Positions 10,938 to 57,036 of a stretch of 64,000 bases of DNA are shown here, piece after piece. The DNA is from an uncultured Candidatus Peribacteria bacterium (lineage in GTDB: Bacteria; Patescibacteriota; Gracilibacteria; CAIRYL01; GCA-016699755), in contig CAZLFD010000004.1 of the NCBI GenBank assembly GCA_964558715.1, forward strand, positions 1,257 through 65,256. The letters are read 5' to 3'. Both the position numbers and the translations under genes were made by a program. The notes under the pieces are model-generated. The model did not search any database, had not been told where the DNA came from, and saw only the letters and a list, made by a program, of their open reading frames with translations. The stretch's first letter is position 1. The number at the start of each line of letters is the position of its first letter.

Positions 10938-12089
10938 TCAAGTCGGAATGACTCCTGCGTTTTTTGCTTGTTCCTTCTTCCACTCTCTTTCCACGAATTC
11001 TTTGATTTCTTTGTCGAAGCGTTGTGCCGAAAACTGCTTCGCGTATTCCGCCAGTTTTTCACGTTTCAACTTTTTCTCAATACTTTCAAATTCATGAATG
11101 GCTTTTTCGAGTACGAACGGTGTTTGTTCATCAAACAGTACACCAGTTTTGCCATGCTCTAGGGTCGATATCACTCCTCCTTTGCCGTAGGCGATGACCG
11201 GCGATCCGGCAGCTAGGGCTTCGATCGCGGTGATGCCCGCATCTTCTAACTGCGGAAAAAGCAGTGCCTTAGCTTGCCCCATTAACTTTGGCACTTCGTT
11301 ATCGCGCACAAAACCACGGAATTCGATATTTGGCACATCCGCAGCCATCTTCCGCAGTTCTGCTTCATTTCGCCCTGTTCCAGCAATGACGAGCCGCTGA
11401 TGAGGCATTTTTTTAAAGGTATTGATGAGCAAATCAAAACGCTTCTGCGGCACTAAGCGACCAAAGCCGAGATAGAATTTTTCCTTTTTTTCGTTGAGCC
11501 CAATAGCAAAGCGGTCGACATCTGCCGGAGGGATGATCACGCTTGCATCACGATTATAGTAGCGTTTGATGCTGGAAGCGATGTAATCGGAATTAGCAAT
11601 ATACACATCGGGCCGCTGGGCCGCGTAATAATCCCAGATGCGGAGTTTGGTAAAATAGCGCGGTAGCAATTGCTTAACCCGTTTTGGTACGGGAAAATCT
11701 TCTAAATACTGCTGCCAATCACCCCATAAATAACGGGTAGGGGAGTGACAGTAGCAGATATGCAGCTGATTTGGATGTGTGATGATCCCCTTGCCGACAA
11801 ACGAACTGCTCGAAAGTACAATGTCGTATTCCGCGACATCCAGATTTTCAATCGCCTTGGGTAAAAAGGGGAGAAGAAAAGGATGATGTTTACGGATGCG
11901 CTCTGGTAATTTTTGTAAATACGAGGTATGAATGCGCTCTTTTGCGATGCGTAAGCGAAAGGTGCGTGGCGTATACACCGTGGTATACATGTGCGCATGC
12001 GGAAACACTTGGAGAAAGCGCTTTATAACAGCTTCTGCACCCCCAGATATGGTAAGCCAATCGGCGATGATGGCGACTTTTGGTTGCAT
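10938..12089 (-). CDS. Glycosyltransferase family 4 (GT-B, group 1)
   Basis: E-x7-E motif 'EDAGITAIEALAAGSPVIAYGKGG...GKTGVLF' and a GT4-type N-terminus 'IADWLTISGGAE'. Confidence 0.75.
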   Translation of the reverse strand: MQPKVAIIADWLTISGGAEAVIKRFLQVFPHAHMYTTVYTPRTFRLRIAKERIHTSYLQKLPERIRKHHPFLLPFLPKAIENLDVAEYDIVLSSSSFVGKGIITHPNQLHICYCHSPTRYLWGDWQQYLEDFPVPKRVKQLLPRYFTKLRIWDYYAAQRPDVYIANSDYIASSIKRYYNRDASVIIPPADVDRFAIGLNEKKEKFYLGFGRLVPQKRFDLLINTFKKMPHQRLVIAGTGRNEAELRKMAADVPNIEFRGFVRDNEVPKLMGQAKALLFPQLEDAGITAIEALAAGSPVIAYGKGGVISTLEHGKTGVLFDEQTPFVLEKAIHEFESIEKKLKREKLAEYAKQFSAQRFDKEIKEFVEREWKKEQAKNAGVIPT

Positions 12090-12257
12090 GATGAGGTATT
12101 TTATCTAAGCTTGCCGGAAATTTAGATTTTATGAAAGCTGTAGGCGGCTTAATAGTGTTAGAAAGCCGCTTCGCAAACAGAGCTTCGCAAACAGAATATA
12201 TTGACTAATATAATTATATATTATATAATATTAAGATTATTGTTCCCCCATCTTCTA

Positions 12258-13778
12258 ATGGAACTTTCTATCGCCCAACAGGCGAAAAGTCTCATCGAAA
12301 AGAGCAAAAAAATCCTTCTGGTCGCGCATGCGAAGATGGATGGTGATACGCTGTCGGCAACGATAGCCCTGCATAAACTGCTGCAGAAAATCGGAAAGAA
12401 AACGGTGGTGGCTTGCGCCGATGCCGTGCCCGAGGTGTTTTCGTTCCTCCCCGAAACAGGGGTGCTGGAGCGCGAAATATCGGCCGGAAACGATTTTGTC
12501 ATCTCGCTTGATTGCTCACGCACGCAGGCGCAAAAACTGCGCTGGAAGATCGAAGGGAATCAGCTGAAGATTTTCGTCACGCCATTTGGGGGATCGTTTC
12601 AGGCAAAAGATGTCAACTTTTCTGAACAATCCGATTTTGACCTGATTATTACAATCGATGCCGCAGATCGCCAACAGCTCGGGAGCATATTTGAAGAAAA
12701 CACTGATCTGTTTGCCCGGGTTCCGGTACTCGTCTTTGACCACCACACGAGCAACCCTGGTTTTGGTACGGTGAATGTCATCGATACAAAAGCGGCGAGT
12801 ACGACCGAGGTGCTGTTTCACTTTTTGCCCACGATGTTCGGCGAACACTGGAAGAAAAAAATAGACGCCGATATCGCGACATTACTACTCACCGGAATCA
12901 TCACTGATACAGCAAGCTTTCAAAACCCGAACACCACGCCAAAATCGCTAGAAGTAGCCGCCGATCTGGTAGAGCTGGGGGCGCGCCAACAAGAGATTAT
13001 CCGTCATATATTTAAGACGAAAAACATTCCCACACTCAAACTTTGGGGGCGTGTGCTTTCTAAGATCAAGACCGATCCGCTACATCGCATGCTCTGGAGT
13101 ACGGTTTCAGCCGATGACCTGAAAGATACCGGCGGTACGCTTGAAGATATGAACGGGATTGTCGATGAACTGCTCGCCACCGCGCCGGGAATGGAAATGG
13201 TTTTTCTGCTCAAAGAGCGTGACGACGGTGTAGTTGCCGTCTCGATCCGCACCACCACCCCACTGTGTGATGCTTCGAAATTTTCATTGGAGTTTGGTGG
13301 CGGTGGGCATGTACAGGCAGCAGGCTTCAAAATACGTGCCAGTAAGCCATTCGACATTATTGTGGGCGAAGTCATATCGGCAGCACAAAAGTTTCAGGCG
13401 AAGCGTTTTGCTGAAGAAAGTGGAGAAGAACGAGATAATTCTGATAAAGATTCAGACACTAAAGATAATCCCGAATTGAAATCGGGTGAGCAATACCTCG
13501 ATGATGCCGCCTTGGAAGAATTTGCTATTGATCCAACAATTAAGTCAGGTGAAGATATATCACCCCTAAGTGCAACAGAATCACCTGCCGAAAGCTCTGA
13601 AGATGAAAGCGGAGCACTTCCATCTTCAGGGCAGAAGTCTACCGAAGTAGTTCCGCCCAAAAAACCCCGCGATTTATCGCACGAAGAGTTTTCCGGTATG
13701 TTGGAACAGATAATGCGTCGCAATCCATTAGGTAAAAACGGTGATAAAAAAGACGATTTATCTTCTCCTAACAAATGA
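12258..13778 (+). CDS. DHH/DHHA1 phosphoesterase (NrnA-like) with ~130-aa acidic/Ser-rich C-terminal tail
   Basis: Motifs 'HAKMDGDTLSA', 'ITIDAAD', 'VFDHHTSN', 'GIITDT', 'GGGGHVQAAGF'. The ORF opens at 12201, but the ATG at 12258 ('MELSIAQQAKSLIEKSKKILLVAH') is the family-typical start. Confidence 0.8.
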   Translation: MELSIAQQAKSLIEKSKKILLVAHAKMDGDTLSATIALHKLLQKIGKKTVVACADAVPEVFSFLPETGVLEREISAGNDFVISLDCSRTQAQKLRWKIEGNQLKIFVTPFGGSFQAKDVNFSEQSDFDLIITIDAADRQQLGSIFEENTDLFARVPVLVFDHHTSNPGFGTVNVIDTKAASTTEVLFHFLPTMFGEHWKKKIDADIATLLLTGIITDTASFQNPNTTPKSLEVAADLVELGARQQEIIRHIFKTKNIPTLKLWGRVLSKIKTDPLHRMLWSTVSADDLKDTGGTLEDMNGIVDELLATAPGMEMVFLLKERDDGVVAVSIRTTTPLCDASKFSLEFGGGGHVQAAGFKIRASKPFDIIVGEVISAAQKFQAKRFAEESGEERDNSDKDSDTKDNPELKSGEQYLDDAALEEFAIDPTIKSGEDISPLSATESPAESSEDESGALPSSGQKSTEVVPPKKPRDLSHEEFSGMLEQIMRRNPLGKNGDKKDDLSSPNK

Positions 13779-14044
13779 ATATTTTTTACGGCTTACTTGG
13801 CATGGCGGCAGCATATTGTCTGATCCGCTATCGCAAAAAAGTCATTGGATTTACCGGCCAATGGCCCTGGGCTGAAAAAGCTTTCGGACCCGGACATACC
13901 GACTTTGCATTACTGCTACTAGCGATTTGCATCTTCTTTTTGTCGATTACTGTAATGACCGGTCAGATGGACGATCTGCTGAACAGTAGTGTAGGAGATT
14001 TAAGTGAAGAAAAGCAAAAGCAAGGCACTTCGACTCTCAGGTAA
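13775..14044 (+). CDS. Small membrane protein (hypothetical)
   Basis: 89 aa with two hydrophobic helices. ATGA start/stop overlap with the DHH gene suggests translational coupling. Confidence 0.45.
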   Translation: MNIFYGLLGMAAAYCLIRYRKKVIGFTGQWPWAEKAFGPGHTDFALLLLAICIFFLSITVMTGQMDDLLNSSVGDLSEEKQKQGTSTLR

Positions 14045-14258
14045 AGAGTCATGAAGAAAGCGGGCTGAGAAGGTTACCTCTGCTTTGTTGACGTTGGCGC
14101 TACGAAGATCGATCTCACCGTGCTTTCCAGTTGGTCATTGGAGACTCTGTTTGCGGATGTAATGCTTGTTTTTTATACGCCACGAGAAAAACGCAGGAGC
14201 TTACTATTTAAGTTTTTCAAAACCGCTTTATCTCGAGCACTTTTCTGCGGTATTTGAA

Positions 14259-14300
14259 GAGCCATGGCCGCATTGCCATAGCTCTTTGTTAAATTTTCTT
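14259..14300 (+). terminator. Candidate intrinsic terminator
   Basis: GAGCCATGGC-cgcatt-GCCATAGCTC (10-bp stem, one mismatch) followed by TTTGTTAAATTTTCTT. It lies in the 275-nt gap between convergent genes. Confidence 0.4.
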
Positions 14301-14319: not shown

Positions 14320-15516
14320 TTAGATGGCAGGCACAATCCCCTGGAAGATGACGGAGTAATTGCCGACACGGCCGACAGCATCAACGACACAGACGGGTGC
14401 GAGTACTGCTTGAACACTGCTACCGGTTTCGAGGTAGTATCCGCACTCTACTCCATTGACTTCAGCGCCAGTGATGGAGATATTTTGCGCTTCGAGGCTC
14501 TCGAAGAATGCTCGACGGTCTTCGATCGGAATAGCGCCTGGGTACTGCAGCTCGACTTTTCCAAGTTCAAATACACCAGCTGCAATCGTTGCCGAAAGAT
14601 TTTCGGTCGAAGCAGTGTCGAGAACATCTTTTTCAACAATATTTGGGAAGTAGTGGTAGATATTCTCGATATCACCACTGTCATTCATCTGCACATTGAC
14701 AGAACCGGCCTCTTTCGGTTCGTATGAACCAGTTTTGGCTGGGGTGTTCAGTGTAATAACGGGTAGGGGAAGATCTGGTGTAAAGCGAATCCAGTTTTCA
14801 CCAAATCTGTCGGTTTCTTCACTCGTGCTATACGGGAACCGGAGTAAGCCAGCCGTATTTAGCGCATCAGCTACAGCTTGTGCTCCTGAGCCAGAGATCG
14901 ATGCTGCAATGCCCTCGGCATCAAAGGTAAGATGAAAGACATCATAGTAGAGGAAGTAATCAGCTGAAAGGAGGTCTGTAATCGTGTAGGTCTGCTCATT
15001 CAGGCGTACGACTACACCCTTAATGCCAAGCGTTTCGCCCATTTCCTGAACGACTTCAAGCAGGCTTTTATCGGTCGGGCGCTCAAGCAAATAGACAGGA
15101 AGAGACTCAGGAATCTGGATGTCAATCTCTGTATCGCTATTCGTCCACTCAACACTGTAAGTAGGAGACTCGGCAATCTGTGGCTCATAGTCGGTGATTG
15201 CTGAAGCTGTAAGTTCTTCCTTTTGACGAGTCGTCAGAAATTTCAGCTCTGCTTCACCGCTTTCATCGTAAATCGCCGCTGCAACATCATCCGCTGTTGG
15301 TGTAGGGATATCAGCCTGACTTAGTGCCGCAGAAGTAGGCGTCGGTCGATCATCTTCCTCACCTTTCTCTATGGTTTCTTCAGTCGAGACCAGAGTACTA
15401 GTTGCCGCAGGAGGAGTGGCTTCTTCCGTGTCTGGCGCTGGCGCACCGTTAAAGAGAAGGAGGGCGATAAGCGCCAGAATGCCGATGACGGCAATGATGG
15501 GGATGAGTTTTTTCAT
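14320..15516 (-). CDS. Membrane-anchored extracytoplasmic protein, unknown family (paralog of 52282-53532)
   Basis: N-terminal TM 'LIPIIAVIGILALIALLLF', then a Pro/Thr/Glu-rich linker and a conserved domain. Blocks shared with the paralog include 'VRxNEQxY', 'WIRFxPDLxLPV', 'YPGAI...RR', 'VECGY', 'VIFQG'. Confidence 0.7.
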   Translation of the reverse strand: MKKLIPIIAVIGILALIALLLFNGAPAPDTEEATPPAATSTLVSTEETIEKGEEDDRPTPTSAALSQADIPTPTADDVAAAIYDESGEAELKFLTTRQKEELTASAITDYEPQIAESPTYSVEWTNSDTEIDIQIPESLPVYLLERPTDKSLLEVVQEMGETLGIKGVVVRLNEQTYTITDLLSADYFLYYDVFHLTFDAEGIAASISGSGAQAVADALNTAGLLRFPYSTSEETDRFGENWIRFTPDLPLPVITLNTPAKTGSYEPKEAGSVNVQMNDSGDIENIYHYFPNIVEKDVLDTASTENLSATIAAGVFELGKVELQYPGAIPIEDRRAFFESLEAQNISITGAEVNGVECGYYLETGSSVQAVLAPVCVVDAVGRVGNYSVIFQGIVPAI

Positions 15517-15551: not shown

Positions 15552-17366
15552 TTAGGATTCGATCAGAATACCTGCTTCAAAGCCATCTGCGGCAGTATTG
15601 GTGGCATCAATGTCACCAAAATAGGTACCGGCACAAGCATTTTGCTCTACGGCGAAGAAAAGTTGGAAGATGTCGAGTGCGGCATCTCCATCCTTCCATG
15701 CAAAGCGAGTGGCAATGTCATCAGGATCGGCGACTTGCACTGCATAGTAACCATCTTCAGAAGTGATACCACTGTGCAATTCAGCAACCAAAGCCTGCTT
15801 TTCTTGGGCGTTCAATCTAAGGCTGTCAGCAATAGTGCTCGCGTACCTTTCTACATCAGACTTTGCAACACAAGCCTCACCGACATATCCGCCGCCGTAA
15901 TCTTTGAGGAACGCATAGCGATAGTAGAAGGTATCCTTGTTGCCAGAAGCTAATGTCCACTGCTGCTCACCCGTATCAAACATCTTACTGGCATAGGTAA
16001 CCAGTACGTCGTCAAAGCTGGGCTTCAGTTTCACTTCTTCTGATGAAGAAAGCACAAGGCGAGGGGAGACACCTTGAACATATTCAAAGGTAACAACTGG
16101 TCCACCATTTGCCCCATCACACTTAATTCTATCCCTAATCTTACCACTTATGTTTTTCCTCTGCGAACCGTCACAGAGTACCAAACAGGTATTTGGTTCG
16201 AGGCTTCCAGTCCAGAAAGCCATCGAATCGACAAAGTATTGCGCCCAGTTAGCCTCTGTTCCGTTATCTGGTAGGGCATCGAGAACACCTTTGGCAACAC
16301 GTTCAGATCGGTAAGTGATATCAAGGACAAAATCAGCGATTTCTTTTGCTGCTCCAGCACGGTTGTTATTGGTGATAACATCTTTTACAAGATTCGTTAG
16401 TTTGCTCGCATTGGCATTGCCACTACCACTACCGGTCGAGGCATTGATCAACTCAGTGGCACTAATTGAGTTGATGCCGGTTACTTCTCCTCCCTTGTTA
16501 TCCAGGATAATTCCCAATAAAGCCTGTTTGAGCATCTCCATACCTACAGCGCTGTCTGTAAAACGCTGCAATGTTATTTGGTCGATGCCCGCGGCGTTTG
16601 CATAGTGCGTATGCCCGCCTTCATTACGAGCAAGTTGTAGCGCTTGCGAACCAACAGCATCAAAAGCATTCACGATAGCAGGAAAAGGCGCGTTGGCCGG
16701 ATCGAGGAAGACACTCTCGATTATATTTCGTCCGCTATCGCAGAGAGTAGTACAGGTACCCGATGTACCAGCTGCTTGACGAGAGGCTCTTTCAATCTCA
16801 GCCACATCAGATACATCTGCCACGATATCTACAATAGTCGGTAAGCTGTGGGTTCCGATAAAATAGTTTTGGTTTGTCTTTGCTCCTTGTAGCTGATCCC
16901 AACTGTCTTCTAGGCGAGAGAAGGCATCGAGCACGATTTTCTTTCCGATCATCGGCCAGATGATACTCGCATGGACATCAAGCGAAAAGTAGCCACTGCT
17001 CGGGTCGGTTTCATTAATCTGAAAACAGACGCCGTTACTTGGCCTATCTGTGGCTGCTGGGTTGGAACTTCGAGTGTAGATGAACACTTGTACTGGTGCA
17101 CCAGGCTGAGCGTTTCCTTCGATTTTAAAAGTTTCACCTTCGCGTACGGTAATGATCTCGGTACGTTGGTTGAAAATCGAGCGCTGCCATGCTGTGTCGT
17201 TATCGCCACGGATAATATAGGCATCATCCCAGTCGATGTTGGCTGGCACTTGTGCGACCAGATCTGGGTCGCAGTTCTGCACACTCTGTTGTTGTGCCAT
17301 GGCAGGTGAAGTCCACAGGCTTGCGACAAGTAAAATGCTCGAGAGGAGGTAATTTTGTGTTTTCAT
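15552..17366 (-). CDS. Secreted Cys-rich protein, unknown family (paralog of 53558-55435)
   Basis: Signal peptide 'MKTQNYLLSSILLVASLWTSPAMA'. Long blocks shared with the paralog include 'AYIIRGDxDTAWQRxIFNQRT', 'QPGAPVQVFIYTRS', 'NGVCFQ', 'DPANAPFP', 'GSQALQLAR', 'FWTGxLEPNxCLxLCDG', 'YVGEACxAKSDVE', 'LDIFQLFFA', 'ADGFEAGILI'. Confidence 0.75.
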   Translation of the reverse strand: MKTQNYLLSSILLVASLWTSPAMAQQQSVQNCDPDLVAQVPANIDWDDAYIIRGDNDTAWQRSIFNQRTEIITVREGETFKIEGNAQPGAPVQVFIYTRSSNPAATDRPSNGVCFQINETDPSSGYFSLDVHASIIWPMIGKKIVLDAFSRLEDSWDQLQGAKTNQNYFIGTHSLPTIVDIVADVSDVAEIERASRQAAGTSGTCTTLCDSGRNIIESVFLDPANAPFPAIVNAFDAVGSQALQLARNEGGHTHYANAAGIDQITLQRFTDSAVGMEMLKQALLGIILDNKGGEVTGINSISATELINASTGSGSGNANASKLTNLVKDVITNNNRAGAAKEIADFVLDITYRSERVAKGVLDALPDNGTEANWAQYFVDSMAFWTGSLEPNTCLVLCDGSQRKNISGKIRDRIKCDGANGGPVVTFEYVQGVSPRLVLSSSEEVKLKPSFDDVLVTYASKMFDTGEQQWTLASGNKDTFYYRYAFLKDYGGGYVGEACVAKSDVERYASTIADSLRLNAQEKQALVAELHSGITSEDGYYAVQVADPDDIATRFAWKDGDAALDIFQLFFAVEQNACAGTYFGDIDATNTAADGFEAGILIES

Positions 17367-17593
17367 GAAATTTGAAAAAAGATTTCACTGTATACGATAC
17401 ATCATAATTACTGTTCTTTGCAAGTTCTTAGCGCATGATACCGCTCTATTAACAGCAATGATCGCATATGATGAAAGCGTCCTGTAATACATCTGACTCC
17501 TGTACTGTAGAGTGCGCGAAAACAATTCACTATTTTCGCTTTGCTTTTTGTGAATATTTGTCGAAAATAAAATTCGTATGTTTTTTTTGAATC

Positions 17594-17962
17594 ATGACAA
17601 AGTATTCCTTCCTGATGATCTGCACTCTTGTTGTTCTGACTGGGTGTGCGCCAAGTAGTGGCTCAGCTGATCGTGAGCCTGTTTCCGAGCTTGAAAAATT
17701 TGCCGCTTGCATTACCGAGAAAGATGCGGTGTTTTACGGAACCGAGTGGTGCCCGCACTGTAAAACGCAGAAAGCAATGTTTAAAAGCGGTGCGATGGAT
17801 TTTATAAATTATGTCGATTGTGATGAAAAGCCCGGTACATGCCAGGTAGCCAAGATCACCGGATACCCGACTTGGATCATCGGCGGTGAGCAGCGCTTGT
17901 CTGGCACCCAGCCACTCGAAAAATTGGCTGAGGCAACGGCTTGCCCTGCACCTGCGGCATAA
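17594..17962 (+). CDS. Thioredoxin-fold lipoprotein resembling the VKOR-associated Trx-like domain
   Basis: Lipobox 'VLTGC'. 'FYGTEWCPHCKTQKAMF...YVDCD...ITGYPTWIIGG' carries a CxxC active site and the cis-Pro 'YPTW' pattern of VKOR-fused Trx-like domains. Confidence 0.65.
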   Translation: MTKYSFLMICTLVVLTGCAPSSGSADREPVSELEKFAACITEKDAVFYGTEWCPHCKTQKAMFKSGAMDFINYVDCDEKPGTCQVAKITGYPTWIIGGEQRLSGTQPLEKLAEATACPAPAA

Positions 17963-35303: not shown

Positions 35304-36326
35304 CTATTGCAAAAGTAAGGGCAGTATATTGCTTGCCGATTTGCGTTCAACAGTGCGGATCTGCTGAAAATCTCTGGTAGATTTTTTTTGAATCACAATA
35401 CATGAGGAGGCTATTTTTTTTGTGGATGCGGTTTCTGCAATGATATGATCCGATAAACCTCGGTCCTCGAAAAATGAACGAATCTTCGGAGCAGCTGAGA
35501 GTGCCAAAAAAGGCGTATTTTCAAGTAGCGCGAGCAAATTGCCGTGCAGACGTGAAGATATGACCAGGCGGCTATTTGAAATCTCTTTTCGCAGCGTGCC
35601 AATATCACCTAACATAACGATTGGAACACCGCTTTTATGAGCAAAATTTGTATCCAATGAATCCATTACAGCACACCTGATTGGTTTTGGCAGAGCTTTT
35701 TCTTTGCATAATTTTTTTATTCTTTTGCTACTCATCTTTCCATCACCACGAATCATCAAAAGAGTACCTTTTTTACTTTTTGGTGCCGATAACTTGCGCA
35801 ATAGAAATACCGCATCGGTGGCAATTATAATGCGCTCGTTTGGAATACCTAGTTTTACCAACATTTTTTGTGATGCCTGGTCGCGCACCGAAATAAATCG
35901 TGCACCAAGAAAGGCCTTTCGCGCATGTTTTCGTGCCGATTCTGTAACGAGTGGGCCGACTGAATTGGCAATGATGATATATTTTTTTTGAAACCTTCGT
36001 GCCCACCAAACGTAATATGACCACAAGAGTGGTGCTTTTGCTTCTCGGTCTTGAAATAAGCCTCCTCCACCGTAAATGACGAGATCGGTAGCTCGCAACG
36101 CAAGAAGAAAGCGGAAAAAACTCGTCAATTTTAAAAATGAACGGAGGCCGAACGGAGGCCGAGGAACCGACGCTACACTGTGTTCTTGCATAGTGAACCG
36201 GGGATTTGCAGAAACGACGGTGGTTTCAAAATCCGTCTTTTTAAGAGCGCTGATCAGACCTGCACAGATAGCTTCATCACCCCAGTTAATGCCTCCGTAG
36301 TTGCCGAATAGTAGGAGCTTCTTCAT
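35304..36326 (-). CDS. csaB: Polysaccharide pyruvyl transferase (CsaB-like)
   Basis: 'LLLFGNYGGINWGDEAI' N-terminal motif and 'SSRLHGNLLALLENTPFLALSAAPKIRSFF' C-terminal motif, typical of CsaB-family enzymes. Confidence 0.65.
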   Translation of the reverse strand: MKKLLLFGNYGGINWGDEAICAGLISALKKTDFETTVVSANPRFTMQEHSVASVPRPPFGLRSFLKLTSFFRFLLALRATDLVIYGGGGLFQDREAKAPLLWSYYVWWARRFQKKYIIIANSVGPLVTESARKHARKAFLGARFISVRDQASQKMLVKLGIPNERIIIATDAVFLLRKLSAPKSKKGTLLMIRGDGKMSSKRIKKLCKEKALPKPIRCAVMDSLDTNFAHKSGVPIVMLGDIGTLRKEISNSRLVISSRLHGNLLALLENTPFLALSAAPKIRSFFEDRGLSDHIIAETASTKKIASSCIVIQKKSTRDFQQIRTVERKSASNILPLLLQ

Positions 36327-44464: not shown

Positions 44465-45277
44465 TTATGAGTTTGCCAGCTCGTCTTCGATGATTTGCTC
44501 AAAAGCCTCATATGGAAATGCTCCCTTAATAAACCATCCGTTTACAAAGAAGCCAGGTGTACCACTGACACCATATTTGCTGCCATCAGCAATGTCTTGT
44601 TCGATTTCTTCATCAAATTTTCCGGAGTCGAGACAAGTCTGAAATTCACCGGCATCAAGATTTAGCTCTTCTGCCCAAGCGACAAAATTTTCTGGAATCA
44701 ACTCTGTTTGATTGGCAAAGAGAATATCGTGATACTCGAAGTAGGTTTCGTCATCACTTTGGTCACGCGCGCAGTTAGCAGCCACAGCAGCCGGAAAGGC
44801 ATTAGGGTGAAACGAGAGCGGGAAGTCGCGATAGACGTATTTAACTTTTCCCGTATCGATATAGTTTTCAATAAGCTGCGGATAGACCTGCTCGATGTGA
44901 CGACCACAGAATGGGCATTCGTAATCGCTGAATTCGACAATCGTGACAGGGGCATCTGCATCACCCTTCATAGGATCGTCGTCGACAGATATACCCTCTA
45001 CTCGCTGTGGCTTATTGGCTTCTTCTGCTTGTTGGCGAGCTTCTTCTTCTTGTTGAGCGACAAAGGCATTGATGCCTTCTTCGACCTTGGCATTAAACTC
45101 ATCACTGCTAAATTCTTCGGCAATGATTTCGCGCACGTCTTCTTCGGAAAGCCCACCAGTAGCCGTATTATTACAGGCAGAGAGCAGTACAATCGAAGCA
45201 AATGCTAAAGAAAGTGGTGCAAATTTCATGAGATATAAAACAAAGAAAAATATGTTTGCAGATGCGATTTTACGCAA
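44465..45277 (-). CDS. DsbA-family thiol:disulfide oxidoreductase lipoprotein
   Basis: Lipobox 'LLSAC', active site 'YECPFCGRH', 'GVSGTPGFFVNG' cis-Pro region. The Met at 45229 ('MKFAPLSLAF') is the likelier start. Confidence 0.8.
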   Translation of the reverse strand: MRKIASANIFFFVLYLMKFAPLSLAFASIVLLSACNNTATGGLSEEDVREIIAEEFSSDEFNAKVEEGINAFVAQQEEEARQQAEEANKPQRVEGISVDDDPMKGDADAPVTIVEFSDYECPFCGRHIEQVYPQLIENYIDTGKVKYVYRDFPLSFHPNAFPAAVAANCARDQSDDETYFEYHDILFANQTELIPENFVAWAEELNLDAGEFQTCLDSGKFDEEIEQDIADGSKYGVSGTPGFFVNGWFIKGAFPYEAFEQIIEDELANS

Positions 45278-49429: not shown

Positions 49430-51232
49430 TTACGACGCTACTCCCAAAAGTGGCCAAAAACAATTGATCAAATAGGTAGTGATAAAAAGAAGAATCAAGT
49501 TCAGCGGTGCTCCGACCTTCATGAAATCAAAGAAACGGTAGTTGCCAGAGCCATACACCATCGTATTTGTCTGATACCCGACTGGTGTGAGAAAGCTCGT
49601 AGAAGCAGCAAACATGACGACCAGGATTAATGGAAGTGGATTCACATTCATGGCATCGGCGACCGATATCGCAATCGGTGCGAGCAGGACAACTGCGGCA
49701 TTATTCGAGATGACCTCAGTCAACACGGTAGTAACGACATATAATAGAATGAGGATAAAAATCGCTTTCTGCCCGTCGGAAACAACACCGATAGTAGTCG
49801 CAATCATATCGGCAGCACCAGATTTTTGCATAGCGATACCAAGCGGAATCACCCCTGCCAACAGGAAAATAATCTCCCAGTTGATGGCGTTGTACATTTC
49901 TTCCGTATTTAGACAGCGGGTGAGTATCATGGCCACCACACCGACCAATGCTGAGATAACGATTGGTATTCCCATCACTGCCGAGCAAAAAATAACTCCG
50001 GCGACGATCGTCAATGAAAGCCACATCTTTTCCGGATTAAACTCGTCTTCCAGGGTCTCAAGCAGTACGAAATCGCGTGATTCCCGTAAGCGCCGCAGGC
50101 TATTGACCGAAGCCTGCACCATCAATATCTGTCCGACGTTCAGTGGCATTGCCCCTAAGCGTTGCCCCTTGAGTTGCGGCACATTAAGGCCGACGACGCT
50201 GGCATTGAAGCGGCGCCAAAAATTGATCTCATCTAAACTGCGATCATGAAAAGCAGTAAACCCACGCAGCATCACTTTGATGATCTTGCCAGTTCCTGCC
50301 GGACGCTTGCGGGCTTCTTCGTCGAAATTCGGCAAGAGTTTTATGTGCTCTTGCTTAGTGAGTTCGATTATGCGCTGTTCGGTAGCACGCAAAACGAGAA
50401 TATCGCCTTCTTCGATGCTTTTCTCTTCGGCACTTTTAATGAATGAAGCATTGTCGCGGATCAGCTTCATCACCAGCACATCATATTTATCGGCAAATTT
50501 GGATTTCTCCAGTGTTTTGCCGATAAAATTACTCCCCTTTTCAATCACCACTTCTGTCAAAAATAAATCTTCGTGTTTCTCGCCTTTGCCATCACTTTTG
50601 CGCTCAGGCAGCAAAAAACGCCCGATAAAAACGAAGTACACCACGCCAACCAAAAGTACGATGGCGCCAACATGGGTAAACTCGAAAAGCCCGATCGCCT
50701 GGCCTTTTGAGGCATCACGTAAAATGGAACTGGCAAGGATATTGGTCGAGGTACCGATGAGGGTAAGCATGCCGCCAAGCATGCCAAAAAACGAGAGTGG
50801 AATAAGTAGCTTTGTCGCGGCGGTGCCGGAACGGCGAGCCAGGTCTAAAACCATCGGCAGCAGAATCGCCACCGCGGCGGTATTGTTCACGAAGCCAGAA
50901 ATCGGCGCTACGATCAAAGCGATAGCAAGCAGTTGTTTGATTTCGGAATTTCCCACAAAACCAAACATCTTTCGGCCCAGGCGGTTGATTACTCCTGTGC
51001 GCTGCACACCTGCCGAAAGGATAAACATCGCTAATACCGTTATCGTTGCTTCGTTCGAGAGGCCAGAAAGCCCTTCTGAAACAGTAGGAAAAGAATCAGG
51101 ATAGAGCAATCCTAATAACATCAACGTTATCAGGATGAGGAATGCGGTGATATCGACCGGCAATTTCTCGGTCACGAACAAAAACAGCGCGAAGAGAATC
51201 ACTGCAAATACGAGTAATATCTCTATAGCCAT
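49430..51232 (-). CDS. SLC13/DASS-family permease with central TrkA-C domains
   Basis: 600 aa. Polytopic N- and C-halves flank a soluble ~200-aa insert ('EVVIEKGSNFIGKTLEKSKF...DILVLRAT', repeated 'VMLRGFTAFHDRSLDEINF...ILMVQAS') typical of TrkA-C pairs in CitT/ArsB-superfamily transporters. Confidence 0.7.
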   Translation of the reverse strand: MAIEILLVFAVILFALFLFVTEKLPVDITAFLILITLMLLGLLYPDSFPTVSEGLSGLSNEATITVLAMFILSAGVQRTGVINRLGRKMFGFVGNSEIKQLLAIALIVAPISGFVNNTAAVAILLPMVLDLARRSGTAATKLLIPLSFFGMLGGMLTLIGTSTNILASSILRDASKGQAIGLFEFTHVGAIVLLVGVVYFVFIGRFLLPERKSDGKGEKHEDLFLTEVVIEKGSNFIGKTLEKSKFADKYDVLVMKLIRDNASFIKSAEEKSIEEGDILVLRATEQRIIELTKQEHIKLLPNFDEEARKRPAGTGKIIKVMLRGFTAFHDRSLDEINFWRRFNASVVGLNVPQLKGQRLGAMPLNVGQILMVQASVNSLRRLRESRDFVLLETLEDEFNPEKMWLSLTIVAGVIFCSAVMGIPIVISALVGVVAMILTRCLNTEEMYNAINWEIIFLLAGVIPLGIAMQKSGAADMIATTIGVVSDGQKAIFILILLYVVTTVLTEVISNNAAVVLLAPIAISVADAMNVNPLPLILVVMFAASTSFLTPVGYQTNTMVYGSGNYRFFDFMKVGAPLNLILLFITTYLINCFWPLLGVAS

Positions 51233-51311: not shown

Positions 51312-52217
51312 TTAGTCTTTCTTATGCCAAATGACAATGAGTGGAGCGGCGATAAAGAGTGATGAATACGTTCCGATGATAAGCCCTGCAGAGAGAGCAA
51401 TAAAGAAAGCAAAGAGTGAAGAAAAACCCATAAAATACGCCATCATGGCAAAGATAACGAGCAATGTTGAAATCGAGGTGTTCATCGAGCGGCGCATCGA
51501 CTGCCATGCCGCTACTTCGGTAAGCTTGGCCAGGTTTTTCTTGTTCTTTTCTCCTTTTAAGTTTTCGCGGATGCGGTCGAAGATGACAATCGTATCATTA
51601 ATAGAAAAGGCGAGCACGGTGAGTAAAGCGGTAATAAAGAGGGTGTCGACTTCTACCCCGTAAAAAACACCAAGCAAAGCAAAGATGCCCACGACAATAA
51701 TGGTATCGTGCGCTAAAGCGGCAATGGCGGCAAGCCCGAATTTCCAACTCGAAAGCCCTTCTGGCACATGGCGAAACGCCCAGGCCACGTAGAGGATGAT
51801 TGTAAGAATCGCTAGACTAACCGCAATGAAAGCACGCTTTTTAAAAACTTCTCCCACGGTCGGGCCGATGGTGTTGACCTGCTCTACCGTTAAGGAAGCA
51901 CCGTTTTGTGCAAACGCATCGGATAATGAATTTACCTCATCATCTGTAAGTAGGCGTGAACGTATGATGTATCCACCCCCATCGAAAGTGGCGGTAATAA
52001 CCTCCCCCATTTCGTCTCCTAATGCGCCCTGAAACAGCTCTTGTACTTGCTGTTGTGTAACAGCGCCATTACTGGAAGAGATTTCTAAACGGGTTCCTCC
52101 AGTAAAATCAATTCCGGCGTTGAGACCAAAAATACTGATGAATAGCAGTGAAAGAAACACGAGCCCCCCAGAGATGCTAAACCAGAGATTGCGATTAGGA
52201 ATGATATCGAACTTCAT
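51312..52217 (-). CDS. secF: Protein translocase subunit SecF
   Basis: 'GIDFTGGT', 'TIGPTVG', 'ALAHDTIIVVGIFAL', 'ITALLTVLAFSINDTIVIFDRIRE'. The Met at 52217 ('MKFDIIPNRNLWF') is preferred over 52247. Confidence 0.85.
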   Translation of the reverse strand: MKFDIIPNRNLWFSISGGLVFLSLLFISIFGLNAGIDFTGGTRLEISSSNGAVTQQQVQELFQGALGDEMGEVITATFDGGGYIIRSRLLTDDEVNSLSDAFAQNGASLTVEQVNTIGPTVGEVFKKRAFIAVSLAILTIILYVAWAFRHVPEGLSSWKFGLAAIAALAHDTIIVVGIFALLGVFYGVEVDTLFITALLTVLAFSINDTIVIFDRIRENLKGEKNKKNLAKLTEVAAWQSMRRSMNTSISTLLVIFAMMAYFMGFSSLFAFFIALSAGLIIGTYSSLFIAAPLIVIWHKKD

Positions 52218-52281
52218 GCAGCAGAAAAATTCCGCCACATTCTGCATTGATTTTTCCGATAATTCAAGTCGTATACGGTAT

Positions 52282-53532
52282 TTACTCCTGATCGGGGTTC
52301 ACAGCGCTTATGACTCCTTGAAAAATAACATCGTAATCACCCGCTCTACCGATGCCGACCACCTTACACGATGGTACAATCAATGCTTGTGGCACAGGAG
52401 ATGTTTCAAAGAGGTAGCCGCATTCAACGCTGCTTAATTCTGCCTGTTCGATAGAAATGATGTCTTGCTCATTTTGCTGGGCATAGAAGGAGCGTCGTTC
52501 AGAAACAGCGATGGCACCTGGGTGTAGTAACTCTATCTTGCCTTTCTGAAAATCACCGGCCTCTGTGAGTGCAATAATAGAGTCGCTGTCCTGCAGACGG
52601 ACGGTTTGTGCCTCACTGACATTCGGGAAGCGTGAATGGATCTCGACAATCGATGATTCATCATTAATGAGGATATCTACGACACCATCGGCTGCCGGTT
52701 CAAAGGTGTTGACTAAGAGTGGCGTTTCTAGTGAATACACCGGCAATGAAAGGTCGGGTTGAAAGCGAATCCATTGATTTCCGAAATCATCCATAATCTC
52801 TTCAGCGTTATATGCGAAGCCAAGTACACCTGCCTCTCTTAGCGTCTTTGCAACGGTCTCTACAGTTGAATCGGCTAAGCCGATATCGACGGCATGCGTC
52901 TCAAAAATCATATGAAATAAATTATAAGCGAGGGAGTAGTCGCCACCGACAATATCCATCAACACATACTCTTGTTCATTGACACGCACGAGATGACCAT
53001 TGATACCCAGGTTGGCAGCAAGATTGGTGATTAATGACTTAAGATCGCCTCCTGCGGGCCTTAAGATTTCATAGACTGGTGCCTCACCGGGCAGATCAAG
53101 TGGTGCTGTAACCTCATCATCGGTCCATTGTACTTCAAGGCGCATAATCGGCTCGGCGGGTGGTTGGTAGGAAGAAATTGCTGACTCGTTCAGCTCTTCT
53201 ACAATCTCGGGCGCCAGCAGCTCAGTCATCGAATCGCTTTTATCCGCAAAAAGTATGGCGTCAAGGCCGGCTTTCGTAGTTGTTCGAGCAATTGGACTTG
53301 GTTGCGTTGAAGTCTCTGGTTGATCTGGAGTATCATCTGTCATTTCGTCTTCGCCGGAATCTGCAGGTGAAGAAGGTGCTATTTTTGCGTCAGGCGATGT
53401 GTCACCGTCAGAAATGGCTGCCTCGGGCGGAGTATCCGATGTAGTGCCTTGCTGTTGGGTGTTGGCGACGATCACCAGAATGATCACAATACCAGCTACA
53501 AGCGCGAAGAGAAGCAGTGTTTTTTTGGTCAT
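52282..53532 (-). CDS. Membrane-anchored extracytoplasmic protein, unknown family (paralog of 14320-15516)
   Basis: N-terminal TM 'LLLFALVAGIVIILVIV', a Pro/Asp/Thr-rich linker, and the same conserved C-terminal blocks as the 398-aa paralog. Confidence 0.7.
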   Translation of the reverse strand: MTKKTLLLFALVAGIVIILVIVANTQQQGTTSDTPPEAAISDGDTSPDAKIAPSSPADSGEDEMTDDTPDQPETSTQPSPIARTTTKAGLDAILFADKSDSMTELLAPEIVEELNESAISSYQPPAEPIMRLEVQWTDDEVTAPLDLPGEAPVYEILRPAGGDLKSLITNLAANLGINGHLVRVNEQEYVLMDIVGGDYSLAYNLFHMIFETHAVDIGLADSTVETVAKTLREAGVLGFAYNAEEIMDDFGNQWIRFQPDLSLPVYSLETPLLVNTFEPAADGVVDILINDESSIVEIHSRFPNVSEAQTVRLQDSDSIIALTEAGDFQKGKIELLHPGAIAVSERRSFYAQQNEQDIISIEQAELSSVECGYLFETSPVPQALIVPSCKVVGIGRAGDYDVIFQGVISAVNPDQE

Positions 53533-53557
53533 GATTGAAATGAGAAGACTACTGTGG

Positions 53558-55435
53558 TCAGTCGATCAAGATGCCGGCTTCAAAGCCATCGGCACCACTT
53601 TTTGTCGCTTCTATCGATCCAAAATCAGTCGCGTCGCAGTCATTTTTATCAATCGCGAAGAAGAGCTGGAAGATATCCAATGGTATACCACCGTTTTTCC
53701 AGCGAAAGCGCTCAGCAATACTGGCAGGATCGGCGACTGAAAGTTTGTAGTAGCCCTCATCGTCGGTGATACTGCTAAACAGCTCAGCTACCAGTGCTCG
53801 TTCTTCCGTCGTATTGAGGCCGAACTTGGTGCTCACATCTCGTGCGTAGCCTTCAACATCAGACTTCGCAATGCAGGCTTCGCCCACATAAGCACCCGCG
53901 TAAGGTTTTAGGAATGCATATTGATAGTAAAAACTGCCATTAAAATGAGCTGGGATCGTCCACCCTTGTTGTCCCGAGTCGAACAGCTTACTGGCATAGG
54001 TGATCATGATATCTTTAAAGTCTGGTTCTAGGTTGACCTCCTCTTCCGAGTTCAACACCAAGCGCGGGTCATCGCCAATCACGAACTCGAAGTTCAATAC
54101 TCGTATGCGCCGGTTGCCAGGCGCAGTATCGGTGTCAGTCTGTGCTACACCGTTGCAAGTATAGTTGCCTCCACGATTTCCGCTTACGAGTTGGTCGCTA
54201 AATGAAGTGCCGTCGCAGAGAGACAGGCAGACATTGGGCTCTAAGTCGCCGGTCCAGAATGTGACCGTGTCGGCGAAATTCTGTGCCCAGTTTTCTTCAG
54301 TGCCCGCCGTTGGCAAAGCTGATAAGAGGGCCTGCGCCGCATTTCGGAAGAGATTATCGTTATTCATCAATACCCGTGCGATATCTTCTGCAGCTTCATT
54401 ACGATCAGGAGCATTGGTTAACATCTTTTTCAGGTTGAGTGCCATTTGCGATGCGCCCAGATTAGCGGCTCCAGAACCACTAGCAGCCGCTTGCAGTTCT
54501 GCAGCGCTGATGGTTGAAATTCCATCGATCGGCATGCTGACAGTATCATTGCGGAGACCTAAAAGCGTTTGCTTTAACACTTCAATGGTTACCGCATTCA
54601 TCGTGATGTCAGCCACCGATTGGCGATCGTTGATGAGTTCACTATTGAGATACACTGTATTTGTCCCTTCGATTCGAGCTAACTGTAAAGCTTGTGAACC
54701 AATAGCGTTGAAGGATTGTTCAATGATCGGAAAAGGGGCATTGGCCGGATCGATCAACACGGCCTCCAACAAGTTTGGCTCGCCATTAGTATTGTTACAG
54801 ATGGTATTGCACGATCCCGAAACACCCGCCCGTTGGCGTGACAGTTCTTCGATATCTTCAAAGGAGGATTGCTCGAGTTCAACCGAGACGGTCGTTGGTA
54901 GGATGTGCGTGCCGATATGATAGTTCTGATTTGTTCTTGCGTTTTCTAACTGGTCCCAACTGTTTTCAAGGCGAGAGAAGGCATCGAGCACAATATTTCT
55001 GCCGATATTCGGCCAAAGGAGGCGCGCGTGTAGCTCCATCGAAAAATAGCCGCTGCTGGGATCGGTTTCATCAAGTTGGAAGCAAACTCCATTATTCGGA
55101 CGATTACTTGCTCCGGGTTCTTGGCTGCGAGTATAAATGAAGACCTGCACTGGGGCACCCGGCTGTGCAGTACCTTCTATGGTAAATGTTTCTCCTTCGC
55201 GGATGGTGACGACATCGGTTCGCTGATTAAAAATAGCTCGTTGCCAAGCGGTATCATCATCACCGCGGATGATATAGGCATTGTCCCATAAGATATCATC
55301 CGGTACATTCGATACGAGATCAGGGGAACAGGATTTGATTTCAGGTGTACCCTGCGCCAAACCTGTGCTCATGCTGAATGCTCCACCTAGAACAAGGATG
55401 CCTGCACCAAAAAGGAGGTGAGTAAAAGATTTCAT
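53558..55435 (-). CDS. Secreted Cys-rich protein, unknown family (paralog of 15552-17366)
   Basis: Signal peptide 'MKSFTHLLFGAGILVLGGAFSMSTGLA'. Colinear with the 604-aa paralog, and the Cys positions are conserved. Confidence 0.75.
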   Translation of the reverse strand: MKSFTHLLFGAGILVLGGAFSMSTGLAQGTPEIKSCSPDLVSNVPDDILWDNAYIIRGDDDTAWQRAIFNQRTDVVTIREGETFTIEGTAQPGAPVQVFIYTRSQEPGASNRPNNGVCFQLDETDPSSGYFSMELHARLLWPNIGRNIVLDAFSRLENSWDQLENARTNQNYHIGTHILPTTVSVELEQSSFEDIEELSRQRAGVSGSCNTICNNTNGEPNLLEAVLIDPANAPFPIIEQSFNAIGSQALQLARIEGTNTVYLNSELINDRQSVADITMNAVTIEVLKQTLLGLRNDTVSMPIDGISTISAAELQAAASGSGAANLGASQMALNLKKMLTNAPDRNEAAEDIARVLMNNDNLFRNAAQALLSALPTAGTEENWAQNFADTVTFWTGDLEPNVCLSLCDGTSFSDQLVSGNRGGNYTCNGVAQTDTDTAPGNRRIRVLNFEFVIGDDPRLVLNSEEEVNLEPDFKDIMITYASKLFDSGQQGWTIPAHFNGSFYYQYAFLKPYAGAYVGEACIAKSDVEGYARDVSTKFGLNTTEERALVAELFSSITDDEGYYKLSVADPASIAERFRWKNGGIPLDIFQLFFAIDKNDCDATDFGSIEATKSGADGFEAGILID

Positions 55436-55494
55436 GTTTGTTTTTAAAAATGCACTAAATATTATACCTGAAAAATCCTGTCAAAAGCAAGTGG

Positions 55495-56925
55495 TTAGTT
55501 TCGGGCATCGCGAGTGCGCAGATCTGAAAGCAGATTCTCAAAATATACCTGAAAATCATCGTCGATCACATAAATGTCAGCGCGTACTCTCAGTCGCGTA
55601 TCATCTCCGCTATCGATGACAATGCCACCATTCAGAAAAACAAAAGTCGCCTTACGGTCAACGGTTGTATCGACCACATTTGAAACCAATTCATCGTTTA
55701 TCTCAACAAAAAGATTTTTCAGACCGCCATCATCGATGCCGTCAAACGACAGAACCATCGATTCTATAATCGCGCTTTCCTCGCCAGAGATCTCGGAGAT
55801 CTTGATCCGCGCCACATCGGCACGTTTGCGGACGTAGTATAACGGTGCGCGTGTCGGTTCGAATTCCACATTTAGTTCGGCAGTTATCGAATTAACGGCA
55901 CCGATCATGTTGCTCGAAATGGGAAACTGGCCCTGAATGGCGATAGGTTCACCAGATTCTTTGCCAATGAGCAGAATGGAATCCGTATTTTCTATCACTA
56001 ACTGATGATTTCCATCACCACTTTCGGCATCCATGTCGGCAGCAATTACGATGTTTCTTGTCTCCCCTGCCGCGATTTCGACCGGTTCATAGCTGATATT
56101 CAGTTCGGCGATATGGTCATCGGCAAAACTACGTCGCGAACCGTAGCGCGCGCCATCCACCAATACTTTTACGCCGATAAAATCCTTTTCGCTGCCCAGA
56201 CCTTTGCGCCGAATGGTAATACCTTCCAAACCCACTGCCTCGGTCGTGGGCGCGGAGATGGCAATCTCTAAAAAGCGTACATTCGATGCATTGCGTGGAA
56301 TCGCACCAGGCGGGAAGAACCCGGGAGCCAAACTGACGTTTGCATAGTCTCGCTCAGGAACAGGTGTGATTTCTGCTTGCGTTTGCTCCTCTACCTCCAC
56401 GATGTCTTGTTCGCAGACCGTGCCATATTGTTGGATAGAATTTGCAGCTAGTAACCAATCTTCCATTTTTAATTCAGTCAGCGGCTGATGCGGCAAAAAT
56501 ACTATCCGCTCAGATCGATGTAGACAGAGCGTGGTTGCTGTTTGAATATACGGTGCAAACCACATTTCCTCTTTTATATCCAGAAACGGAATTGCAGTGT
56601 TCTCTGCCTCCGTCTCAATCTCTAAAAGTGTGAGGATGACTTTCAGCGCTTCCGCACGCGTAACTGCTCGATCAGGCACAAAGAGGCGATGATCAGGAAG
56701 GCTGATTGCACCTTGCTCGAGTGCGAATTCGATAAACGGAGCATTTTTATCTGTAGCCGAAATATCAAGAAAGCGAGTGTTTTGATTCGTTAATTGTTCA
56801 CCTGGGAAGAGGGTGCTCACCACCTCACGCACAAGATCTCCGCGAGTAATGATATTCGATTCAGCTAATGAATGCGGTAAAAAAGTAGTGTAAATAAGCG
56901 CAATGCAAAGAAAGATTTTTTTCAT
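55495..56925 (-). CDS. SLH-domain-like cell-surface protein
   Basis: Signal peptide 'MKKIFLCIALIYTTFLPHSLA'. Two SLH-like units ('FLDISATDKNAPFIEFALEQGAIS...FVPDRAVTRAEALKVILTL', 'FLDIKEEMWFAPYIQTA'), then a ~300-aa probable beta-rich domain. The ORF opens at 56949. Confidence 0.55.
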   Translation of the reverse strand: MKKIFLCIALIYTTFLPHSLAESNIITRGDLVREVVSTLFPGEQLTNQNTRFLDISATDKNAPFIEFALEQGAISLPDHRLFVPDRAVTRAEALKVILTLLEIETEAENTAIPFLDIKEEMWFAPYIQTATTLCLHRSERIVFLPHQPLTELKMEDWLLAANSIQQYGTVCEQDIVEVEEQTQAEITPVPERDYANVSLAPGFFPPGAIPRNASNVRFLEIAISAPTTEAVGLEGITIRRKGLGSEKDFIGVKVLVDGARYGSRRSFADDHIAELNISYEPVEIAAGETRNIVIAADMDAESGDGNHQLVIENTDSILLIGKESGEPIAIQGQFPISSNMIGAVNSITAELNVEFEPTRAPLYYVRKRADVARIKISEISGEESAIIESMVLSFDGIDDGGLKNLFVEINDELVSNVVDTTVDRKATFVFLNGGIVIDSGDDTRLRVRADIYVIDDDFQVYFENLLSDLRTRDARN

Positions 56926-57036
56926 GATCAGCAGATAAAACCACGCCAAAGAGTATGCTTTGCAGCAAAAGTTGCAAGCCCTGTTTTTTCAAAATACAAC
57001 GTGTCAGAATACCCCGTGCATCATTCCGTTTATAAA

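Follow-up and report, generated by a model that had tools for sequence, protein, structure and literature searches.

Does a two-gene surface module belong functionally to the envelope genes among which it lies, or does it only occupy a place between them? The question is raised by a run of minus-strand genes in a stretch of 64,000 nucleotides (nt) from an uncultured Candidatus Peribacteria bacterium (assembly GCA_964558715.1, contig CAZLFD010000004.1, forward-strand positions 1,257 to 65,256; hereinafter, the window, with position 1 at its first letter). In this run, a gene for a protein with S-layer homology (SLH) motifs is followed by genes for a large secreted protein of 625 amino acids (aa) and a membrane-anchored partner of 416 aa, and then by secF and a CitMHS transporter gene. 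The two genes in the middle, the pair, are present twice in the window, and the pair inside the run is denoted copy 2. A preliminary description, which covered the first four of these genes, took them for an operon that links the pair to a wall-anchored protein and to the Sec machinery, and suggested that copy 2 may be the ancestral, functionally embedded locus. We arrived at another reading, which we consider probable, namely, that copy 2, a lineage-specific paralog of a surface module made up of two genes, resides in a variable, promoter-equipped slot of a conserved frame of envelope genes. The principal features are the following.

55495..56925, minus strand (open reading frame to 56949): SLH-like surface protein, 476 aa from the ATG; identified by the Pfam SLH profile, phmmer and the ortholog in a close relative (P0006)
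55461..55484, minus strand: promoter-like TTGACA-N12-TATAAT within the 59-nt gap; the ATG of the 625-aa gene follows 25 nt downstream
53558..55435, minus strand: large secreted protein, copy 2 (625 aa); open reading frame, signal peptide, paralogy with copy 1, AlphaFold2 model
52282..53532, minus strand: membrane-anchored partner, copy 2 (416 aa); open reading frame, N-terminal transmembrane segment, paralogy with copy 1
52218..52268, minus strand: conserved non-coding secF leader (TTGAAT 52267-52262, 17-nt spacer, CAGAAT 52244-52239); alignment to the relative
51312..52217, minus strand: secF (301 aa from the conserved start); TIGR00966, Pfam, ortholog in the relative
49430..51232, minus strand: CitMHS/TrkA_C transporter; Pfam; ends the same-strand run and belongs to the conserved frame
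15552..17366, minus strand: large secreted protein, copy 1 (604 aa); paralogy with copy 2
14320..15516, minus strand: membrane-anchored partner, copy 1 (398 aa); paralogy with copy 2
14257..14286, minus strand: terminator-like hairpin ending copy 1 (-23.1 kcal/mol, z -3.67); copy 2 lacks an equivalent

A conserved frame with different cargo in two genomes

The layout of the run is compact. The gaps measure 59 nt between the SLH-like and 625-aa genes, 25 nt within the pair, 64 nt between the 416-aa gene and secF, and 79 nt between secF and the CitMHS gene. When the first three of these gaps were folded and compared with shuffled sequence, no significant hairpin emerged (z = 0.60, 0.00 and -0.27, respectively), and a terminator scan found none in them; the 79-nt gap is likewise devoid of a hairpin. 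Hairpins are detectable in this lineage, namely, at the end of copy 1 (see the list above) and at the end of the corresponding gene of the close relative discussed next (-40.4 kcal/mol, z -5.1). The order of the four minus-strand genes, the three gaps and the lack of terminators given in the preliminary description are thus all reproduced by the open reading frames, the folding and the terminator scan.

The sole close relative available for comparison, GCA_041738935.1, was found via P0006, the only detectable ortholog of the SLH-like protein (48% identity). We consider it a close relative because the orthologs that flank this gene (secF, CitMHS, lgt, dnaX, GT4, DHH and DsbA) are 69-81% identical to those of the window. 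The gene order at its locus (L002) is GT4 (minus strand), DHH (plus), an 88-aa protein (plus), SLH-481, SLH-583, secF, CitMHS, a lipoprotein (minus), lgt, dnaX, 5-FTHF ligase and DsbA. Both genomes, then, retain the frame SLH-like gene, X, secF, CitMHS, where X is the pair in the window and a 583-aa SLH protein in the relative. The latter protein is unrelated to the members of the pair (E = 4.5 and 0.59). In the relative, the SLH-583 gene is followed by 285 nt that hold strong hairpins before secF begins. Within this stretch, at L002 6806-6856, there are two near-identical tandem hairpin arms (GGGCACTCTGCAAGAGTGCCC / GAGCACTCTTGCAGAGTGCTTG) with a fold of -40 kcal/mol, and no trace of these tandem hairpins was detected in the window. 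The relative's assembly, which is within the searched database and, as a metagenome-assembled genome, may be incomplete, yielded no close ortholog of either member of the pair.

Promoter-like elements at the junctions

If the slot between the SLH-like gene and secF received different cargo in the two genomes, its borders are of special interest. The 59-nt gap on the upstream side contains TTGACA-N12-TATAAT (55484-55461), the only perfect hexamer pair in the 64-kb window, where 0.09 such pairs are expected. At the aligned place after its own SLH-like gene, the relative has TTTTGACA-N12-TAATAT, ahead of its different cargo. On the downstream side, the 51 nt that precede the secF ATG (52268-52218) make up a leader in which 37 of the 52 aligned columns are identical to the relative and which contains TTGAAN-17-CAGAAT. 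This conservation is non-coding because a 1-nt indel breaks any reading frame. The sequence upstream of the leader gave no alignment to the relative, and no promoter-like signal was detected in the 25-nt gap within the pair.

The 12-nt spacer of the upstream element is non-canonical. Spacer lengths were compared in the intergenic DNA of the window and of ten related loci (L002, L004 and L007-L014). TTGACA-like/TATAAT-like pairs were found with spacers of 9-12 nt in 13 cases and of 16-18 nt in 11 cases, compared with four in total for spacers of 13-15 and 19-22 nt, and the distribution in coding DNA is flat. One pair with an 11-nt spacer sits 9 nt upstream of tRNA-Gln. These counts are small, and the short-spacer pairs may represent an unusual promoter geometry in these bacteria. 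Examples of spaced pairs in the window are found at 3980-3958 (minus strand), 55484-55461 (minus) and 17449-17472 (plus).

Judging from these elements, the slot would have its own promoter and secF would keep its own leader, so that the likeliest organization of the run is three transcription units with possible read-through. Given the 25-nt gap without any signal, the 625-aa and 416-aa genes almost certainly form a bicistron, and the same holds for copy 1, with its 35-nt gap, and for another locus with both genes (L007, 63-nt gap). Read-through from the pair into secF is likely in the window and is not expected in the relative because the pair brought no terminator with it; read-through all the way from the SLH-like gene via the pair to secF is possible. 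The single transcript that had been proposed for the run is accordingly at odds with the predicted promoter in the 59-nt gap and the conserved secF leader in the 64-nt gap.

An orphan secF and the question of an envelope operon

The open reading frame of secF spans 51312-52247, and its conserved start is the ATG at 52217, from which the sequence begins with MKFDII..., the same as in the relative (L002 7063-7968). The product scores 255.5 bits on TIGR00966 (cut-off 160), matches the Pfam families PF02355 SecD_SecF_C (E = 1.6e-46) and PF07549 Sec_GG (E = 3e-6), and has the GG motif and six hydrophobic segments, so that the assignment to SecF stands. No secD was found among the window open reading frames scanned against Pfam or in the 15 kb of the relative, and neither secD nor yajC adjoins secF in the window or in the relative. 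On these profile matches, the gene encodes a regular SecF, an orphan without an adjacent secD in either genome, and it is apparently a housekeeping gene with its own conserved leader rather than an accessory paralog. We also considered the partner, or the 583-aa protein of the relative, as a divergent SecD and rejected this possibility given that each has a single transmembrane segment and no SecD match.

The locus can be compared with two known arrangements. With the secD-secF (yajC-secDF) operon it shares a bona fide SecF; unlike that operon, it has no adjoining secD or yajC, the genes upstream of secF encode surface proteins, and secF has a conserved leader of its own. In Firmicutes, S-layer loci adjoin accessory Sec genes, as is the case for slpA/cwp-secA2 in C. 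difficile and for sap/eag with secA2/slaP and csaAB in B. anthracis. In these loci, the Sec component is secA2, a dedicated accessory paralog; S-layer protein export genetically requires it, and its linkage to the surface-protein gene is conserved. The features in common are the clustering of genes for wall-binding surface proteins with a Sec component and pyruvylation genes, and cargo that varies between strains. In contrast to the Firmicute loci, the Sec gene here is apparently a housekeeping secF, the linkage of the pair is not conserved, and the csaB-type gene lies 16-19 kb away.

These comparisons bear on the proposal that the run is a true envelope operon, that is, that the SLH-like gene, the pair, secF and perhaps the CitMHS gene form one regulated transcript, with the pair depending on, or assisting, SecDF export and wall anchoring. 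All the products are envelope proteins, the genes share one strand, the gaps are short (59, 25, 64 and 79 nt) and free of internal terminators or hairpins, and the Firmicute loci with S-layer genes beside secA2 offer a precedent. Nevertheless, promoter-like elements are predicted in both longer gaps (59 and 64 nt), secF appears to be a housekeeping gene with its own leader, and the gene order is not kept elsewhere: the slot of the sister genome holds SLH-583 and a terminator before secF, and neither neighbor is present at copy 1 or at nine other loci of the large-protein family described below. We therefore consider a true operon improbable. What remains of the preliminary description is a co-directional, terminator-free block of envelope genes; the functional link does not survive the different cargo in the relative and the nine loci without these neighbors, and, as far as gene order goes, the pair is tied to Sec by its position rather than by its function.

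A family of large secreted proteins coupled to S8 subtilases

Searches by word index, with the large protein, the SLH-like protein or the partner as query, found nothing beyond the query itself, the paralog and one ortholog. The family of the large protein became visible only in an exhaustive HMMER search with a profile built from the two paralogs, which yielded 75 clusters (defined at 50% identity), 58 of these at E <= 1e-30. Most of the family members are 580-700 aa long. The hidden Markov model of the family has about 590 columns, and both window copies align with it end to end along with 28 other members. The invariant positions are W64, R66, C118, D151, E285, K288, W383, C521 and C600, together with a C-terminal GFExG(I/L)L, and six of the nine Cys residues of the copy-2 protein (C118, C209, C213, C403, C521 and C600) are invariant or nearly so in the 30-member alignment. 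None of the 30 members is matched by a Pfam model, and there is no family match among the NCBIfam, PHROGs and PADLOC models. Pattern scans of GTDB genomes with alignments A1 and A4, as well as a metagenome scan with A4, returned nothing. A further locus (L016), obtained in a scan with the SLH-like alignment, was discarded as an unrelated SLH-domain locus without secF or a family member.

We examined 11 family loci, namely, both window copies and nine others, the latter confirmed by our own hmmsearch. The arrangements at the nine other loci are as follows.

L004: family gene between HAD and ferritin genes
L007: two tandem large genes and a 454-aa partner (hhalign probability 99.9%) after a 63-nt gap
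L008 (1402-11173): S8-subtilase fusion, two tandem members, then a second S8 gene
L009: family gene, then a gene for a 1186-aa polysaccharide-deacetylase protein
L010 (7915-11767): family gene 2 nt downstream of an S8 gene
L011, L012 and L013: family gene alone
L014: family gene after ftsK

Among the 11 loci, copy 2 is the only one that adjoins SLH and secF genes; no SLH or secF neighbor is found at any of the nine others. The check suggested in the preliminary description, that is, whether the SLH-like gene or secF lies beside the pair in related genomes, thus has a negative outcome in the relative and at these nine loci. The context genes of the family loci include T4SS_pilin and DUF4012 genes, a tentative hint at CPR/Patescibacteria-like lineages. 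A partner follows the large gene at three of the 11 loci, both window copies and L007, and is, accordingly, optional for the large protein.

The recurrent association is with secreted S8 subtilases. In three clusters (P0055, P0071 and P0074), an S8 peptidase is fused to the N-terminal two-thirds of the family domain, which in these proteins makes up the C-terminal extension of the subtilase, and stand-alone members adjoin S8 subtilase genes in L008 and L010. Unlike the fusions, the window copies contain no protease domain, and no S8 gene was identified among the window open reading frames scanned against Pfam. The family domain matches no described protease-associated domain. The large protein is, then, a member of a small family without a Pfam model or a fold match in PDB that is recurrently coupled to S8 subtilases. 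Because the large protein elsewhere lacks a partner, occurs in tandem arrays, or adjoins or is joined to S8 subtilases, its role appears to be structural, in a surface layer, in adhesion or in association with proteases, rather than in secretion.

Two old paralogs, neither in a typical family context

The large proteins of the two copies (625 and 604 aa) share 53% identity (E = 0), and the partners (416 and 398 aa) share 35% (E = 1e-81); by this measure, the copies are true paralogs, as had been proposed. In a neighbor-joining tree of the large-protein family, the window copies are sisters, with P0007 next. Within the pair, hhalign gives no sign of homology between the two proteins (probability 0.5%), and this possibility was rejected.

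The copy-2 large protein has a predicted cleavable signal peptide and nine Cys residues; the predicted cleavage sites of the large proteins are of the Ala-x-Ala type (GLA|Q, AMA|Q). The copy-2 partner starts with a single N-terminal hydrophobic segment, followed by an acidic linker of about 60 aa rich in Pro, Thr and Ser; the globular domain behind it, approximately 330 aa long, has two conserved Cys residues. Genes for extracytoplasmic thiol-disulfide proteins are present in the same window, namely, a thioredoxin/glutaredoxin-like lipoprotein with a CPHC motif (17594-17962, plus strand), divergent from copy 1, and a DsbA-like protein (44465-45277, minus strand) that is part of the conserved frame. 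These nearby proteins would fit the nine Cys residues of the large proteins. The NCBI gene calls start late in this region: the large copy-2 protein is called at 604 aa (P0001), with the loss of the signal peptide, and the SLH-like protein at 445 aa (P0005). We prefer the longer forms (625 and 476 aa) because these are supported by the paralog and ortholog alignments.

An AlphaFold2 model of the large protein from the 30-sequence alignment (pLDDT 79.6, pTM 0.64) consists of a beta-sandwich (approximately residues 36-165), a mixed or helical middle part up to about residue 395, and an alpha/beta C-terminal domain (424-625). A Foldseek comparison of this model with PDB and BFVD gave nothing at E <= 0.001 and only generic Ig-like matches to the N-terminal beta-sandwich; a weak, non-significant match to the HPI S-layer protein of D. 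radiodurans was recorded at E = 0.043. Sequence searches of PDB with profiles A3 and A7, the latter that of the partner, produced no matches.

The surroundings of copy 1 are different, in agreement with the preliminary description: it has no SLH or secF neighbor, is convergent with genes for an 89-aa membrane protein and DHH, and is divergent from genes for the thioredoxin-like lipoprotein and an M16 peptidase. It has a 35-nt gap within the pair, a 227-nt upstream region and its own terminator. The GC content and the GC content at third codon positions (GC3) are normal. With these normal values and the lack of PHROGs or PADLOC matches, a phage, defense or toxin-immunity origin of the module is unsupported.

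Which of the copies came first? Under one scenario, the slot of the common ancestor already contained the pair, which the relative later exchanged for SLH-583, and copy 1 is the derived duplicate. The promoter element of the slot is kept in both genomes and hence predates their split, so that either cargo could be the original one; and the identities between the paralogs (53% and 35%, compared with 48% between the SLH-like orthologs) indicate an old duplication, one that may also have preceded this split. Against this scenario, the slot of the relative is without the pair, no close pair ortholog was found from its assembly, and there is no outgroup with the pair in this frame. Moreover, copy 1 is self-contained, with its 227-nt upstream region and terminator, and the terminator-less copy 2 fits insertion into an existing frame. 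On balance, we view the ancestral status of copy 2 as unlikely, although it deserves to be kept in mind; the case made for it earlier, as the functionally embedded locus, is unsupported: the paralogs are sisters, the slot of the relative is without the pair, and the usual family contexts resemble neither copy. Synteny of the family with aminotransferase and Glu-dehydrogenase genes (L010 compared with the window at 59.8-62.7 kb; orthologs 66-67% identical) was examined for hints as to which copy is ancestral and set aside because order and orientation differ, and it does not discriminate.

An atypical SLH protein and a possible wall-polymer ligand

The open reading frame of the SLH-like gene (55495-56949) encodes 484 aa from a TTG codon, and the ATG at 56925 yields the 476-aa form, which has a typical signal peptide with predicted cleavage at MKKIFLCIALIYTTFLPHSLA|ES. 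The preliminary description combined the 484-aa length with an end at 56925, a trivial mismatch that does not affect the identity of the protein. The SLH profile PF00395 matches residues 51-101 with 28.2-32 bits (cut-off 20.8), which places the protein among SLH proteins; the ortholog P0006 scores 33.3 bits on the same profile, and phmmer matches residues 52-159 to the SLH domain of B. anthracis Sap (3pyw/6bt4, E = 2e-4).

SLH domains normally consist of three tandem units arranged as a pseudo-trimer, in which Trp13, GIIxG and TRAE-type motifs are conserved; they bind pyruvylated secondary cell-wall polymer via the Arg of the TRAE motif; the pyruvylated polymer is made by pyruvyl transferases of the CsaB type (PMC6081394). 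The SLH-like protein has about 2.5 such motifs (TRGD, TRAE and TELK), and Pfam scores one unit only. Unit 1 is reduced to an ITRGD helix immediately behind the signal peptide. Unit 2 carries TRAE (T89-E92), but has Phe in place of Trp13 and QGAISL where GIIxG is expected. In unit 3, Trp122 is present, TELK lacks the Arg, and there is no GIIxG. The C-terminal 290 aa form a conserved domain without a family match. By its motif content, with one TRAE and one Pfam-scored motif, the protein is an atypical SLH member.

The pyruvyl transferase is encoded in the window, in the following position.

35304..36326, minus strand: CsaB-type polysaccharide pyruvyl transferase (PF04230, E = 1e-34)

Its neighbors are holB and TPR genes, and 16-19 kb separate it from the SLH-like gene. 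Because the genome encodes a CsaB-type pyruvyl transferase, anchoring of the SLH-like protein to a pyruvylated wall polymer, as in SLH wall-anchored proteins, is plausible. Like B. anthracis Sap and P. alvei SpaA/SlhA, the protein carries SLH motifs, among them a canonical TRAE, at its N-terminus behind a signal peptide, in a genome that encodes a CsaB-type pyruvyl transferase. Unlike these proteins, it has a single Pfam-passing motif, a truncated first unit, a third unit without the Arg and a C-terminal region of 290 aa that matches no family; there is no sign that it forms an S-layer lattice.

These observations also bear on the possibility that the SLH-like protein and the pair form one surface assembly, in which the SLH-like protein binds pyruvylated polymer and docks the large protein while the partner holds it from the membrane, such that the adjacency to the SLH-like gene, and not that to secF, is the functional one. 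The slot beside the SLH-like gene holds surface proteins in both genomes, a CsaB-type pyruvyl transferase is encoded, and the conserved 290-aa C-terminal domain could serve as a docking module. However, copy 1 and all other family loci are without an SLH neighbor, and the relative retains the SLH-like ortholog without the pair. A joint assembly thus seems quite doubtful to us.

A probable lineage-specific module in a variable slot

We return to the slot as the probable explanation for the location of copy 2. The SLH-like gene, the slot, secF and the CitMHS gene constitute a frame of ordinary conserved synteny in the clade, with slot cargo that differs between the sister genomes. Under this explanation, transcription would have three starting points: one ahead of the SLH-like gene, one at TTGACA/TATAAT in the 59-nt gap and one at the conserved secF leader. 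The second of these would drive both genes of the pair as a bicistron that spans the 25-nt gap, and the pair transcript, for lack of its own terminator, would also read into secF and the CitMHS gene, presumably as an incidental by-product of insertion rather than as functional coupling. The large Cys-rich protein would be exported by Sec, cut after its Ala-x-Ala-type site and stabilized by disulfides. At the cell surface, it would be held by the partner, the transmembrane segment and linker of which would present the globular domain outside the membrane. Thus, we infer that the large protein is a disulfide-stabilized surface protein tethered by its partner.

Several points weigh against this reading. 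A terminator-free run of four genes is equally what a true operon would show. The promoters are predicted from sequence; for sigma-70, a spacer of 12 nt is non-canonical, and the support for short spacers in this lineage comes from small counts. A single close relative was compared, a metagenome-assembled genome that is possibly incomplete, and insertion of the pair here or its replacement in the relative both fit. The putative surface-tether mechanism is deduced from topology; the large protein has no informative fold match in PDB or BFVD, and the partner model, from a two-sequence alignment, is unusable (pLDDT 31).

If the slot reading is correct, these poorly known uncultivated bacteria would vary their surface by swapping or duplicating cargo amid fixed synteny, with a fixed promoter and secF leader. 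One could go further and combine the two lines of evidence, in which case the large proteins would be an undescribed, fold-novel surface family functionally tied to S8 subtilases, and the slot a cassette-type site of surface variation. We put this combination forward tentatively and regard it as unlikely in its entirety. The same caution extends to its particulars, in which the tie to S8 would be that of a substrate, a scaffold or a protease-presenting module, and cargo would be exchanged between the fixed promoter and the secF leader.

Two aspects do not depend on that combination. The family of about 75 clusters of 600-aa secreted proteins, without a Pfam model and without a fold match in PDB, is new here and is a target for structural and proteomic work. 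For annotation, the locus shows that a tidy, terminator-free, same-strand run of genes is not evidence of a functional operon, and a single sister genome sufficed to tell the conserved frame from its cargo.

A probable genome rearrangement and other observations

Compared with L002, the window appears to be inverted between approximately 14.2 and 57.0 kb: L002 376-3280 corresponds to window 11031-13902 in forward orientation, and L002 7034-14749 corresponds to 52245-44499 in reverse orientation. The breakpoints lie at 14.05-14.32 kb and 56.93-57.00 kb of the window, and no inverted repeats beyond chance 7-10-mers were detected at them. The middle of this segment, at about 35.6 kb, falls on the maximum of the cumulative G-C curve (35.5 kb) and coincides as well with the switch of genes from mostly plus to mostly minus strand at about 33 kb. 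The pattern looks like a symmetric inversion around a replication terminus with copies 1 and 2 near its ends, with one junction visible in the relative.

Near the start of the window, on the plus strand (955-3123), a gene encodes a 722-aa protein that combines treble-clef zinc-finger DUF4379 repeats with a CapR homology domain and is unrelated to the pair.

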